In this document: positions 4,291 through 9,664 of the stretch, one piece after another
Position numbering within the stretch: the stretch's first letter is position 1
Layout: each line of letters opens with the position of its first letter
DNA from: a virus
Length of the DNA: 64,000 nucleotides
Reading direction: 5' to 3' (one strand)
Virus record (IMG/VR): IMGVR_UViG_3300012314_000001
Notes under the pieces: model-generated
Database searches by the model: none
What the model was told of the DNA's origin: nothing
What the model saw: the letters and a program-made list of their open reading frames with translations, nothing else
Program-made: the position numbers and the translations under genes

Positions 4291-5985
4291 GTGGGAAACC
4301 AACACGAAAGGCACAAACACGTGAAAAACACGCGCCACGCACGGCCACTTGCGCGAATCGCCGCAACCACAGCCGCCACAGCCCCCGCCACTACAGGACT
4401 TGCAATGCCTGCAGCAACCGCGGATGGGGCAAAGGATCTCCTGACTGATAACGCACACAATATCGCGGGTGGTGGTGCCAATATTCATGCTGACGACACA
4501 TGTGTGGAAAAGGTTGGCGACACAGCACACGTCAAATTCATGGCACAACACCAACCCCTTGTATACTCTTCGAATCACGACCAGACTTCGGCTTCGGGAA
4601 CACTAGCTATTCCCGCAAACATGGAAAACGTTAAAATTCGTATCAAAGCCGTCGGACACACGGGCGAAACAGACTTTCAAAACGCTCCTATCACTACAGA
4701 TATTTTCGACACTCCTATTGAAGTTCCTGTAGAAGAAGGGGATAACACAGGAACCGCAAAGGGTGTAGCTAACTTCACACCGCTGTACGAAGAGGGTGAG
4801 TTCATCGGCGGTAAGGAAAGTGTTGAAAAGAATATTGCAGACGGTGCTAAATTAGTTCGCCATCACCAGGCAGACCTTAAAGATGAGAGCGGGAATTTTA
4901 ACAACGAGAGCTTTCCATTCAGTTCCTATGGGGATTCGGACTTGCCTTGGTACGGACATCATGACGAAGAATATGACTTTTATGAATTCGGGAACCTTTA
5001 TGTTCCTTTGACCTTTGAGATTGAAGGTGACATCTCTACCGTAGGCGAAGATACGTTCGCTACCGCGGCGGTTTCTAATATCGGATGGAAGACGAGCTCT
5101 GAAGATAATTCAGGAGCTTATGAGCTAGGGGGGCAGTCACTCACGGAGTATACTCAATTCCGCCCTGGTGGCCTGCCCCCTGCCATGCCTGAAGACGAAG
5201 AAATGATCCAGGTGTATAAGGATAAATTGTCGGATGCTGGTTTGGATATTTCTTCGAATATTGCTCCCACTTCGGAAATTCCAGGTAATGCTAAGTATGC
5301 CCGTATTGGCAGTGATATTCGACCGTCTGCTCGTGGAGATGTGGGCAGGACTTATGTTGATCTGTTTTCTTTGAACGAAAATCGGGCTGTGACGTATCTT
5401 GGACAGGTTCCGGCGTCTGCTGAGGATGGTGCAGATGTGACTGCTGCTCATGTGACATTGTGTCCTGCTTCTGATACTCCGGAGACTGACGTACCAGAAA
5501 CCGAGACCCCAGAAACGGAGACCCCAGAGACTGAGACACCGGAAACTGAGACTCCAGAGACGGAGACACCGGAAACTGAGACTCCAGAGACGGAGACACC
5601 GGAAACTGAGACTCCAGAGACGGAGACACCGGAAACTGAGACTCCAGAGACGGAGACACCGGAAACTGAGACTCCAGAAACTGAAACACCGGAAACTGAG
5701 ACTCCAGAGACGGAGACCCCAGAGACTGAGACACCGGAGACCGAGACTCCAGAAACTGAAACACCGGAGACTGAAACCCCGGAGACCGAGACTCCAGAAA
5801 CCGAGACCTCGGAAATGACCACTGCCGCCCCGGCTGGTGACACCCCTGAGTCTGGAACCCCAACAGAATCTAACACCCGACACCTCGCCACTACCGGCGC
5901 AAGTGTTATCGGAATTGGTGTAGGAGCACTTGCACTCATTGGTGCCGGAACCTTCTTGGCTACCCGCCGTAAGAACCAAGCATAA
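4291..5985 (+). CDS. LAxTG cell-wall-anchored surface protein, paralog 1 (564 aa), with (ETP)n repeat stalk
   Basis: Conserved N-terminal block (NAHNIAGGGANIHADDTCVEKVGDTAHVKF) and C-terminal block (YEFGN..FEIEGD..TFATAAVSNIGW) shared with the next two genes. About 25 ETPET repeats. Ends LATTGAS + hydrophobic + RRKN. N-terminal leader is atypical (ARIAATTAATAPATTGLAMPAATA). Confidence 0.75.
   Translation: MGNQHERHKHVKNTRHARPLARIAATTAATAPATTGLAMPAATADGAKDLLTDNAHNIAGGGANIHADDTCVEKVGDTAHVKFMAQHQPLVYSSNHDQTSASGTLAIPANMENVKIRIKAVGHTGETDFQNAPITTDIFDTPIEVPVEEGDNTGTAKGVANFTPLYEEGEFIGGKESVEKNIADGAKLVRHHQADLKDESGNFNNESFPFSSYGDSDLPWYGHHDEEYDFYEFGNLYVPLTFEIEGDISTVGEDTFATAAVSNIGWKTSSEDNSGAYELGGQSLTEYTQFRPGGLPPAMPEDEEMIQVYKDKLSDAGLDISSNIAPTSEIPGNAKYARIGSDIRPSARGDVGRTYVDLFSLNENRAVTYLGQVPASAEDGADVTAAHVTLCPASDTPETDVPETETPETETPETETPETETPETETPETETPETETPETETPETETPETETPETETPETETPETETPETETPETETPETETPETETPETETPETETPETETPETETSEMTTAAPAGDTPESGTPTESNTRHLATTGASVIGIGVGALALIGAGTFLATRRKNQA
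5470..5812. repeat. tandem 15-nt repeats (gagac(c/t)ccagaaac(c/t)) encoding (ETPET)n
   Basis: Visible periodic DNA repeat inside the CDS. Confidence 0.85.
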
Positions 5986-6005
5986 TCACCTGTAAGTCCG
6001 TCTTT

Positions 6006-6040
6006 CCCGCGGCACAAGATCACATCAGCCGCGGGAAAAC
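6006..6040 (+). terminator. GC-rich hairpin (cccgcggc...gccgcggg) downstream of paralog 1
   Basis: 8-bp perfect stem. The same hairpin family follows all three paralogs. Confidence 0.5.
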
Positions 6041-6066
6041 TATTGTCAAATGAGAAAGGAATAATC

Positions 6067-7797: not shown

Positions 7798-7827
7798 ACT
7801 ACTACCACAACAAAAGGGAAAAAGATC

Positions 7828-9606
7828 GTGACACTAAAGAAAACAGCACTACAGACGCTTAGTGGTATCGCAGCCATTGGACTCACACTAGGCGTAGCAG
7901 CACCTGCAAACGCGCTTTTGGCTGATAACATTCACAATATCGCTGGTGGCGGTGTCAATATTCATGCTGATAACACCTGCGTGGAAAAAGTCGGAGACAC
8001 AGCACACGTTAAATTCGAAGTACAACACCAACCACTACTATTGTCTTCTGATCACGGCCAAACAGCAGCTGACGGATATATTGCTTTGCCGAAGAATCTC
8101 AAAAATGTAAAAATTGGACTTAAAGCTGTAGCAGATTTTGCTGGAGACGTGCCAAAGGAAGAAGCAAATGAACGCTATTTGGACACTCAGTACCGTGAGG
8201 CACGAATTCTTGATGAGCCAATCGAAATGCCCATTGTTGACCGTTCCGAAGACCCAGATGCACCACCAATGCTTGGTGCATCCCCTAGCGTTAGAGAAAA
8301 TCCTGACGTAAAGCGCGACGAGCGCGCTACAGATTACGAGGATCGTGGATTTTCTAAAAAGGTAACAGAAGATCCTAATAACTCTAGTAAAGCGCATGTT
8401 ACTTACTTGCCGACTGAGCAGGAGCTTCGTGACCACATCAAGAAATTTGATGTACATATGCGTAAGGTAAACCCTGTTCCGTACGATGACCCCGAGTATG
8501 ACGAGTCAAAGCACGGGTATACTGGTCCTTTCATGCTTGGGTCTGGTGACGACATGTGGTACGGAAGCCATATCAAAGAATATAATATCTATGAGTTTGG
8601 AAATATTTTCATGCCAGCCTCATTTGAGATTGAGGCAGATGTTGACGTAGAGCATGACGATACGTTTGTTACCGCGGCTACGTCCAATCTGGGGTGGAAG
8701 TCCAGTGAGGAGTACCGGGCTGGGTCCTATAAGGGTGGTTCTCAGTCTTTGCAAGAATATCCTATGTTCCGACCGGGTGTTCTTCCTCCTGCTATTCCTG
8801 AAGACAAGGATATGATTCAGGTGTATAAGGACAAGTTGTCGGACGCTGGTCTGGATATTTCTCCGACTATTGCGCCCACGAATGAGATGCCGGGTGACTC
8901 TAAGTATAAGTATATCGGTAATGATTCTCGTTCCTCTGCTCGTGAGGATGTAGGAGGTGCGTACTCTCGTATTTTTACACTGCATTCTCATAAAGCTGTG
9001 ACTTACGTTGGTCAAGTACCGCAGTCTGGCGAGGATGGTGCTGATATTACGGCGGCTCATGTGACTTTGTGTCCGTCTGACGAGACGCCACCAGAGACTG
9101 AGACTCCGGAGACTGAAACTCCAGAAACCGAGACACCGGATACTGAGACTCCAGAGACGGAGACTCCAGAAACGGAAACCCCGGAAACCGAGACACCGGA
9201 GACCGAGACCCCAGAAACTGAGACCCCAGAAACTGAGACCCCAGAGACGGAGACTCCAGAAACCGAGACCCCGGATACTGAGACCCCGGATACTGAGACC
9301 CCAGGAACCGAGACGCCAGAGACTGACGTGCCTGAGACTGAGACTCCGGAGACTGAGACACCGGAGACTGAGACTCCAAACACGGACACACCAGAGACTG
9401 ACACCCCAGAGACGGAGACCCCGGAGACTGACACTCCGAACACGGACACCTCGGAAACCGACACTCCTGCCCCTGCCCCGAGTAATGACGGGGACACTGG
9501 TTCCAGGACGTTGGCATCTACTGGTGCTAGTGTGATTGGTATTGGTGTTGTAGCACTGGTACTCATCGGTGCTGGTATTTTCTTGTCTCGCCGTAAGAAG
9601 GACTAG
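7828..9606 (+). CDS. LAxTG cell-wall-anchored surface protein, paralog 3 (592 aa)
   Basis: GTG start with RBS aaaggga. Signal peptide MTLKKTALQTLSGIAAIGLTLGVAAPANA. Conserved N/C blocks. ETP repeats. LASTGAS + TM + RRKKD. Confidence 0.8.
   Translation: MTLKKTALQTLSGIAAIGLTLGVAAPANALLADNIHNIAGGGVNIHADNTCVEKVGDTAHVKFEVQHQPLLLSSDHGQTAADGYIALPKNLKNVKIGLKAVADFAGDVPKEEANERYLDTQYREARILDEPIEMPIVDRSEDPDAPPMLGASPSVRENPDVKRDERATDYEDRGFSKKVTEDPNNSSKAHVTYLPTEQELRDHIKKFDVHMRKVNPVPYDDPEYDESKHGYTGPFMLGSGDDMWYGSHIKEYNIYEFGNIFMPASFEIEADVDVEHDDTFVTAATSNLGWKSSEEYRAGSYKGGSQSLQEYPMFRPGVLPPAIPEDKDMIQVYKDKLSDAGLDISPTIAPTNEMPGDSKYKYIGNDSRSSAREDVGGAYSRIFTLHSHKAVTYVGQVPQSGEDGADITAAHVTLCPSDETPPETETPETETPETETPDTETPETETPETETPETETPETETPETETPETETPETETPETETPDTETPDTETPGTETPETDVPETETPETETPETETPNTDTPETDTPETETPETDTPNTDTSETDTPAPAPSNDGDTGSRTLASTGASVIGIGVVALVLIGAGIFLSRRKKD
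9085..9460. repeat. tandem ETP-encoding repeats in paralog 3
   Basis: Periodic DNA repeat. Confidence 0.8.
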
Positions 9607-9624
9607 TAGACACTAGGTGGCATA

Positions 9625-9664
9625 GCCCGCGGTTGCAATTGTTTTGTGGCCGCGGGTTTTGTTG
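9625..9664 (+). terminator. rho-independent terminator (gcccgcgg...ccgcgggt + TTTT) after paralog 3
   Basis: Hairpin plus T-tract. Confidence 0.55.

Follow-up and report, generated by a model that had tools for sequence, protein, structure and literature searches.

We analyzed a 64-kb stretch of DNA from IMG/VR virus record IMGVR_UViG_3300012314_000001 (hereafter the window; the contig that carries it is 65.9 kb) and found that it contains a tandem array of three genes predicted to encode related, wall-anchored surface proteins. The products of the three plus-strand open reading frames (ORFs; 564, 568 and 592 amino acids (aa); Table 1) are 59-60% identical in pairwise comparisons and share one plan, consisting of a leader peptide, a head of ~350-390 aa, a stalk of 137-146 aa, an LA(T/S)TG pentapeptide, a membrane segment and a basic tail. 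Two sequence blocks occur in all three proteins, the N-terminal DNxHNxAGGGxNIHAxxTCxxKxGDxAHVKFxxQHQPL and a second, YEFGN...FEIExD...DTFxTAAxSNxGW. A first-pass annotation of this DNA had described three tandem paralogous LAxTG-type surface proteins with a divergent middle, and the ORFs, their identity to one another and their sorting signals bear this description out. What it called a C-terminal block is the second shared block; it is present but sits in the middle of the head, and conservation continues to the stretch EDGADxxAxHVTLC. Ribosome-binding-site spacing suggests that genes 1 and 2 likely begin at the internal GTG and ATG codons listed in Table 1; public gene calls shorten gene 1 counterparts to start at MPAATADG (P0049 and P0050).

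The sorting motifs of genes 1, 2 and 3 (LATTG, LATTG and LASTG, respectively) are each followed by ~20 hydrophobic residues, with the shared sequence GASV(I/A)GIGV...GAG.FL, and then by an RRK-type tail, such that all three proteins carry the tripartite C-terminal sorting signal (LAxTG, hydrophobic segment, basic tail). With the LPXTG-anchor model TIGR01167, gene 3 scored 17.1 bits, above the cut-off of 15.9, and genes 1 and 2 scored just under it (14.9 and 14.5 bits); with the Microco_LAVTG model, the surface proteins scored under the cut-off. Matches to Extensin_1 (PF02095) were rejected as compositional, since they cover only the Pro/Thr/Glu stalk and reach 22.9-28.3 bits against a gathering threshold of 105 bits. 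Class E sortases of Corynebacterium and Streptomyces read LAXTG, and Corynebacterium species carry them (PMC5148588). No sortase gene was found in the window by Pfam and motif scans, and anchoring would fall to a sortase of the host.

Judged by leader sequence and Kyte-Doolittle hydropathy, all three genes encode an N-terminal signal peptide. The leaders of genes 2 and 3 have the form MxLKK...GLTLGVAxPANA, with a best 12-residue hydropathy of 2.0-2.2. The leader of gene 1 is rich in Ala and Thr, and had been regarded as aberrant. The same type of leader, however, reappears on the first gene of a sister element, L008 (174-kb contig), despite a different head type, and the second-position head of L008, which is of type A′, carries a MALKK leader, indicating that the leader tracks array position 1. 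Rather than being aberrant, the gene 1 leader is a second leader type, a conserved alternative signal peptide.

The stalks are encoded by 15/30-nt tandem arrays, delimited with Tandem Repeats Finder, that specify roughly 18-25 clear (E/D)T(P/S) units each. Variation in repeat number had been proposed, with assembly artefact as the obvious concern, and for gene 1 that concern is justified. Its tract contains ~146 nt of perfect periodicity, about the size of a short read or of the largest assembler k-mer, and the 195-nt difference between gene 1 and its 99.8%-identical twin in the sister contig L010 falls within the tract that holds the 116-nt exact self-repeat; the gene 1 repeat number is therefore unreliable from short reads. 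In the tracts of genes 2 and 3, exact repeats reach no more than 32 and 26 nt, respectively. Over 1,707 nt, gene 2 and the corresponding L010 gene are identical but for one 15-nt unit near position 7423, which looks like genuine slippage.

Each gene is followed by a hairpin. The motif CCCGCGG-N8-25-CCGCGGG occurs three times in the 64 kb (0 expected by chance), once 3' of each surface gene; it is present at equivalent positions in sister elements and was found only after surface genes. The earlier statement that the same hairpin follows each gene holds for hairpins 1 and 2, which have identical 11-bp arms and are followed by A residues instead of a U tract. The longer hairpin 3 (-33 kcal/mol) precedes TTTTGTTG and, having a U tract, is a canonical intrinsic terminator. 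Hairpins 1 and 2 may attenuate or stabilize a polycistronic transcript, with hairpin 3 terminating it. Upstream of the array, ARAGORN confirmed the previously annotated tRNA cluster, which occupies the equivalent place in L007, L008 and L010. We considered and rejected the idea that this tRNA trio supplies the Thr-rich genes, as the stalk Thr codons are 46% ACT, 31% ACC and 10% ACA.

The head domain and its relatives

The head matches no Pfam or NCBIfam family, and its family profile found no match among Protein Data Bank (PDB) sequences. An AlphaFold2 model of gene 3 residues 30-419, built from a 61-sequence alignment, has a mean predicted local distance difference test score (pLDDT) of 91.1 and a predicted template-modelling score (pTM) of 0.92, confidently predicting one compact, mostly β domain. 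Foldseek searches with this model returned nothing significant from either the PDB or predicted viral structures, and the latter result indicates that the head is not a recognizable virion or tail-fibre protein. The top Foldseek rows were α-hemolysin and leukocidin; at template-modelling (TM) scores of 0.12-0.15 these are noise, and a likeness to pore-forming toxins was rejected. The head contains only two cysteines, C22 and C386 (gene 3 mature numbering), both conserved and one near each end, the second within the EDGADxxAxHVTLC stretch. A disulfide joining the two ends of the head is a reasonable prediction from this arrangement. In the family as a whole, indels and sequence variation cluster in mature residues ~71-205, and recombination breakpoints located by BLAST fall in the conserved N and C blocks that flank this middle region.

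A word-index search recovered 72 relatives, none with a name and almost all metagenomic, and an exhaustive profile search of 1.84 billion representatives recovered 53 clusters at E ≤ 1e-30. A study of the human pregnancy microbiome of vagina, gut and saliva (PMC6169887) is the source of one relative, QWCQ01. Most close family members end in LA[STNQE]TG and a few in LPTTG. Among some long, distant relatives, the head lies N-terminal to SpaA/prealbumin-fold stalk domains in P0109 and to AgI/II-C2, isopeptide pilin D2 and SpaA domains in P0195, and P0215 combines a YSIRK signal with SSSPR-51 repeats and LPXTG. Ligand-binding heads of fibrillar adhesins occupy this same place ahead of the stalk modules, and the position is the best available clue to function.

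No relative of the head family was found in 185,579 GTDB species-representative genomes or in IMG/VR searches, and tblastn with the head matched nothing in 50,697 phage records (INPHARED) or 72,556 plasmids (PLSDB). A search for near-identical DNA with 12 kb found no match in reference collections.

Nine distant members (P0056, P0062, P0070, P0071, P0086, P0087, P0089, P0093 and P0109) have neither LAxTG nor a membrane anchor. Their C-termini consist of xTGG and an amphipathic tail of ~16 aa ending in (I/L)F(R/N/S), e.g., VNTGGAIQESIWTKIANLFR. This motif, which no NCBIfam sorting-signal model matches, resembles a C-terminal signal for sorting or attachment that has yet to be described. The most distant homologue, P0071, is a 707-aa, Asn/Lys-rich protein encoded at 8001-10124 of L005 (ERZ28600770 scaffold_1, 670,612 bp). 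The 18 kb around it consist almost entirely of small unannotated genes, with a tRNA-Met, a collagen-like protein and a TilS-like gene, and L005 could belong to a bacterium with a small genome or represent a phage or element of very large size.

Array variation and the carrier element

Related contigs carry the array in a conserved setting. In sister elements, the gene order is nuclease, YAcAr-domain gene, 281-aa gene, tRNA trio, array and a gene for a 212-223-aa membrane protein, and the array itself contains two or three genes in differing order (Table 1). More distant elements (220-kb contigs) have one copy in a different neighborhood. This synteny indicates that the tRNAs are genes of the element and do not mark a chromosomal attachment site, and that the array is a standing feature of the element lineage and not a recent insertion. 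The proposal that the surface genes are cargo of a mobile element thus stands insofar as their carrier is a phage- or plasmid-like element rather than a chromosome, but they are not recent cargo, their place being fixed with the tRNA trio and the flanking genes.

Backbone genes of the sister elements are 90-100% identical, whereas the middles of the heads are 7-40% identical. Between the window and L007, the flanking genes are 97-100% identical, with synonymous divergence (dS) of 0-0.07, and head A is 99.4% identical, yet the second head of L007 (type D) is only 53-59% identical to B or C and dS is saturated. Sliding-window comparison revealed head D to be a mosaic in which the N block resembles that of B, the C block resembles that of C, and the middle between them is novel (7-40% identity). 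Within head types, the ratio of nonsynonymous to synonymous substitution (ω) is 0.06 (A vs A′) and 0.16 (C vs E), with head dS of 1.0-1.4, far above that of the flanks; between head types dS is saturated and ω is uninformative. The middles are divergent, as the first-pass annotation noted in proposing diversifying selection, but the ω values are those of purifying selection, and rapid positive selection on the head within head types was rejected. The sequence pattern fits old allelic lineages that are kept and reshuffled by recombination through conserved arms, not fast evolution by point mutation. The surface genes also favor T-ending codons (ACT, GGT, CCT and CTT, 32-46%), whereas other element genes favor C-ending codons (ACC 48%, GGC 40%), a contrast hinting that the array has a partly separate history, with a different source or expression regime.

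The window encodes a family A DNA polymerase (PolA), RusA, a YqaJ/RecE-type exonuclease and another exonuclease, along with WhiB, Dam- and EcoRI-type methylases, a DUF2020 protein, four tRNAs and many small unmatched ORFs. PolA is 40-42% identical to polymerases of Gordonia, Corynebacterium and Nocardia phages. The best phage matches of a 452-aa ORF are in SPβ-like staphylococcal phages of 124-147 kb (34% identity), and the Mycobacterium phage WXIN (115 kb) encodes a protein with 30% identity to a 707-aa ORF. Between phage and plasmid, a phage is somewhat favored as the carrier. Matches to tail, tape-measure and virion-structural PHROG families were rejected as proof of a phage, all of them being NlpC/P60, SLT or M23 hydrolase domains of small secreted proteins. 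Backbone genes found nothing close in IMG/VR, and no matching giant Corynebacterium element or jumbo phage was found in the literature.

The host is probably a Corynebacterium. The window contains an LCP (LytR-CpsA-Psr) gene (PF03816, E = 1.3e-38) ~24 kb from the array, the named homologues of which are all Corynebacterium LcpA proteins (41-48% identity) with annotations such as ‘cell wall biosynthesis protein LcpA’ and ‘arabinogalactan--peptidoglycan...’; a Corynebacterium host was proposed on this basis, and the LAxTG signal agrees with it. The element-borne LCP copies form their own cluster, 53-98% identical, and lack the PF13399 domain of the chromosomal homologues. A cell-wall glycopolymer ligase is an unusual gene for a mobile element. 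As another route to the host, we searched for close relatives of the IS200/IS605-type TnpB of the window and found none in the 185,579 genomes.

Other genes of the window bear on the cell envelope or on DNA handling. Five, a striking number, encode secreted proteins active on the envelope: a LysB-like cutinase, an NlpC/P60 hydrolase, a trypsin-like protease, an SLT transglycosylase and a non-specific nuclease that has a signal peptide and, at its C-terminus, a membrane tether. Their presence suggests that the element remodels the host surface broadly. The EcoRI-type adenine methylase (E = 2.3e-93) comes after a 672-aa ATPase of the FtsK/SpoIIIE type, which has a membrane segment at its N-terminus, and the Dam-type methylase lies just upstream; the ATPase could be a DNA-transfer or packaging motor, which bears on the question of plasmid versus phage. 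The 375-aa TnpB adjoins a truncated Y1 transposase fragment, and sister elements have TnpB copies at other positions, some with a resolvase. Three tandem paralogues of 58-67 aa, which begin M(T/P/S)RY(M/I)FR(L/A)PI(D/E), are kept in L007, L008 and L010 and match no family. Two further adjacent paralogues (233 and 218 aa) begin MT(H/Q)Y..(V/T)RHR(A/T)Y(V/I)(A/T)PE(D/N)T; one of the pair, scanned against PHROG, gave no match. The distant sisters L001/L002 (the 220-kb contigs), L011 and L019 have a GC content of 55-57% and encode M23 peptidases, both subunits (A and B) of their own gyrase/topoisomerase II and a PolA that includes an exonuclease domain; beside the single family copy lies a gene for a 730-aa surface protein with a Rib domain.

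Table 1. Features of the surface-protein array, its surroundings and its counterparts in sister elements (positions refer to the window).
Feature	Position or contig	Strand	Details
tRNA-Leu(UAG), tRNA-Gly(UCC), tRNA-Thr(UGU) cluster	3506..3774	+	directly upstream of array; ARAGORN, Rfam
Promoter-like TTGACA-17-TATAGT	3463-3491	+	11/12 matches; just upstream of tRNA-Leu; promoter scan
Surface protein gene 1 (head type A, shortest head)	4321..5985	+	ORF 4291-5985 from GTG 4291; likelier GTG 4321 after GAAAGG
Gene 1 Ala/Thr-rich leader	4321-4422	+	
Gene 1 head	4423-5463	+	
Gene 1 stalk	5464-5883	+	
Gene 1 stalk repeat tract	5494..5815	+	30-nt period, 10.7 copies; 116-nt exact self-repeat at offset 30
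Gene 1 LATTG, membrane segment and RRKNQA	5884-5982	+	
Hairpin 1, TTTCCCGCGGC-N14-GCCGCGGGAAA	6003..6038	+	-21 kcal/mol; no U tract
Surface protein gene 2 (head type B)	6067..7749	+	ORF 6043-7749 from TTG 6043; likelier ATG 6067 (MALKK) after GAAAGG
Gene 2 stalk tract	7246-7590	+	
Gene 2 LATTG sorting signal	7648-7746	+	
Hairpin 2	7764..7796	+	11-bp arms identical to hairpin 1; -21 kcal/mol; no U tract
Surface protein gene 3 (head type C)	7828..9606	+	TIGR01167 above cut-off
Gene 3 signal peptide	7828-7914	+	
Gene 3 head	7915-9072	+	
Hypervariable head middle, gene 3	8125..8529	+	conservation profile; mature ~71-205; equivalents in genes 1 and 2
Gene 3 stalk tract	9091-9437	+	
Gene 3 LASTG, membrane segment and RRKKD	9511-9603	+	
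Hairpin 3, then TTTTGTTGTGTG	9624..9668	+	canonical intrinsic terminator closing array; -33 kcal/mol
Non-specific nuclease	1258-2025	-	
Cutinase (LysB-like)	12630-13559	+	
58-67-aa paralogue triplet	14434-15086	-	
452-aa ORF	17889-19247		
233-aa paralogue	26658-27359	-	
218-aa paralogue	27367-28023	-	
NlpC/P60 hydrolase	32232-32945	+	
LCP	33371-34972	+	
TnpB	39012-40139	-	
Y1 transposase fragment	40343-40642	+	
tRNA-Asn(GUU)	43813-43886	-	fourth element tRNA, distant from cluster
Trypsin-like protease	45038-46243	+	
SLT transglycosylase	46240-46920	-	
FtsK/SpoIIIE-type ATPase, then EcoRI-type methylase	60116-63149	+	
Array A-B-C	window and L010 (contigs 65.9 kb and 76 kb)		
Array A-D	L007 (140-kb contig)		
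Array E-A′	L008 / L009 (174-kb / 27.7-kb contigs)		

Possible roles of the array

Our data suggest, with a probability that we put at roughly 0.55, that the three genes form a tandem array of paralogous, wall-anchored display proteins with adhesin-type heads, carried by a large, uncultured, phage-like extrachromosomal element, most likely of a Corynebacterium. Each protein would be exported by the Sec pathway via its cleavable leader, and its head would fold outside the membrane as a single β-rich domain, probably closed end to end by the disulfide. A housekeeping class E sortase of the host would then cleave the LA(T/S)TG motif and link the protein to peptidoglycan. The acidic, Thr/Pro-rich (ETPET)n stalk, ~140 aa long, is predicted to be an extended, probably O-glycosylated spacer that would hold the head beyond the thick corynebacterial envelope (we estimate a reach of ~45 nm, presuming roughly 0.3 nm per residue). 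The head would act as an adhesin-type ligand-binding module, its hypervariable middle of ~135-150 aa setting specificity or antigenicity, and two or three different heads per element would widen the repertoire. The N and C blocks, the stalk and the shared hairpin may serve as homology arms for exchange of head cassettes and for gain or loss of whole genes between elements, and stalk length may change through slippage. The net effect would be that the element re-dresses the surface of its host, as in lysogenic conversion.

Several observations weigh against this interpretation. The hydrophobic core of the gene 1 leader is weak, its best 12-residue Kyte-Doolittle window scoring 1.0. The assignment of the host rests on homologues of a single gene, and with the family missing from isolate and species-representative genomes, the model presumes that the real host has a class E sortase. 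Ligand binding by the heads is a prediction, and the model does not account for how sortase-anchored proteins would pass the mycolic-acid layer. Finally, capsid, portal, terminase and clear transfer genes were absent from the window and from ~200 kb of sister loci, in scans that covered portions of each 76-220 kb element and listed the best 25 families per pooled scan.

The same absence of capsid, portal and terminase genes would suit a conjugative megaplasmid, on which the proteins would mediate mating aggregation and surface exclusion, as PrgB, PrgA and PrgC do for pCF10, with heads that bind recipients and variants that tell self from non-self. The FtsK/SpoIIIE-type ATPase belongs to the motor class used for DNA transfer by actinomycete plasmids, and the window also encodes secreted wall hydrolases and an EspG-like match. 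We nevertheless consider this explanation improbable: tblastn with the head matched nothing in the plasmid collection, the stretches scanned yielded neither relaxase nor type IV secretion genes, several backbone ORFs as well as the genes for replication and recombination are phage-type and have counterparts in phages of 115-147 kb, and the element carries its own tRNAs and topoisomerase II genes. That the mobile context has been misread, and that these are ordinary chromosomal surface genes of an unsequenced actinobacterium, seems very improbable. Corynebacterium chromosomes typically carry such a sorting signal and such LCP homologues, and tandem arrays of surface-protein genes are common in chromosomes, but neither the head nor the TnpB of the window has a relative in the species-representative genomes, the LCP is only 41-48% identical to any chromosomal LcpA, the 64 kb and sister loci contain no housekeeping genes, and the gene content is of phage type (PolA, RusA, YqaJ, WhiB, Dam, own tRNAs and many small ORFs).

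The proteins could instead serve superinfection exclusion, as a dense, negatively charged, glycosylated layer that masks or mimics envelope receptors and blocks competing phages or sister elements, with head diversity the product of an arms race. The phage-like carrier also encodes LCP, cutinase, NlpC/P60, SLT, trypsin-like protease and secreted nuclease proteins, and the unlikeness of the head to any known viral structure argues that it is not a virion protein. Diverged alleles shuffled between near-identical backbones are an expected outcome of negative frequency-dependent selection, and the allele pattern fits a shield or decoy equally well. The placement of distant homologues at the tip of multidomain adhesins and pilin-like proteins, however, points to ligand binding, and nothing in this analysis links the array to a phage receptor. 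To our knowledge, exclusion proteins of phages infecting Gram-positive bacteria are mostly small membrane proteins or lipoproteins and not 560-aa sortase substrates. We regard a shield or decoy as rather unlikely and favor adhesin-type display proteins.

The predicted display proteins resemble several known systems in design. Fibrillar adhesins, such as the MSCRAMMs SdrD, SdrE, Ace and Cnm, SadP and Fhb of Streptococcus suis, and antigen I/II, likewise have a signal peptide, an N-terminal head, a repetitive low-complexity stalk and a sortase signal, and in distant homologues the head is joined to stalk modules typical of such adhesins. In contrast to those proteins, the head is a single domain of ~390 aa with no Pfam, NCBIfam or PDB sequence match; similarity spans at most about 150 residues at 8-13% identity. 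The tandem N2-N3 arrangement of MSCRAMM/Cna-type proteins is absent, and no isopeptide-domain hidden Markov model matched the three proteins. SasX, a surface protein related in design, alters host surface and colonization behavior. Its LPxTG protein gene, sasX, is located on a φSPβ-like prophage (PMC6048232), and SasX/SesI and the array are alike in being sortase-anchored surface proteins (predicted, for the array) encoded by accessory genes of a very large phage (124-147 kb, for the former) or phage-like element (for the latter), the SPβ-like phages also containing the best phage matches of the 452-aa ORF of the window (34% identity). They differ in that there is no sequence similarity (the phage records searched with the head included SPβ-like phages) and in that the array consists of two or three hypervariable paralogues in tandem, whose products have a long ETPET stalk and a class E signal, LAxTG, and whose host is of Corynebacterium type.

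PrgA, PrgB and PrgC of Enterococcus faecalis pCF10 are encoded by neighboring sortase-anchored genes for aggregation and exclusion, and are similar to the array in being neighboring surface genes on a mobile element. They are, however, mutually unrelated, whereas the window proteins are paralogues with no match in the plasmid collection, and beyond the FtsK-like ATPase no conjugation machinery was identified in the window. In Actinomyces oris, the LCP enzyme LcpA, genetically linked to gspA, glycosylates GspA before anchoring (PMC6381275). GspA is an actinobacterial, glycoprotein-type substrate of the housekeeping sortase, and the element encodes both its own LCP and Thr-rich stalk proteins for which glycosylation is predicted. 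By analogy, the LCP of the element may be a glycosylation partner of the stalks; against this idea, its gene does not adjoin the array and its homologues are Corynebacterium LcpA, such that it resembles an arabinogalactan ligase. The signal peptide-head-stalk-sortase design on a mobile element is therefore already known, and the array extends a familiar theme. What is new is the head family, the way in which it varies by cassettes inside a tandem array, and the large, uncharted elements associated with Corynebacterium that carry it.

If the proteins are displayed as predicted, then an uncultured mobile element sets part of the surface of human-associated Corynebacterium, which would bear on colonization, bacterial interactions and phage susceptibility in skin and oral communities. 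The array would also be a natural case of predicted class E sortase substrates encoded outside the chromosome. The confidently folded head provides a new domain family for adhesin research, and its conserved N and C blocks provide a handle for tracking these elements in metagenomes. A more far-reaching proposal, which we hold to be possible but doubtful, is that the array is an exchangeable ‘surface coat’ of an undescribed lineage of human-microbiome Corynebacterium-associated elements (76 to >200 kb), a lineage absent from GTDB species genomes, IMG/VR, INPHARED and PLSDB, in which the head would constitute a new fold-level ligand-binding family and its middle would be swapped in cassette-like fashion under frequency-dependent selection. 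Exclusion or recognition between competing elements, or escape from host antibody, are possible drivers. Were this proposal true, recombination-based variation of a bacterial surface would be run by the mobile element and not by the bacterium.

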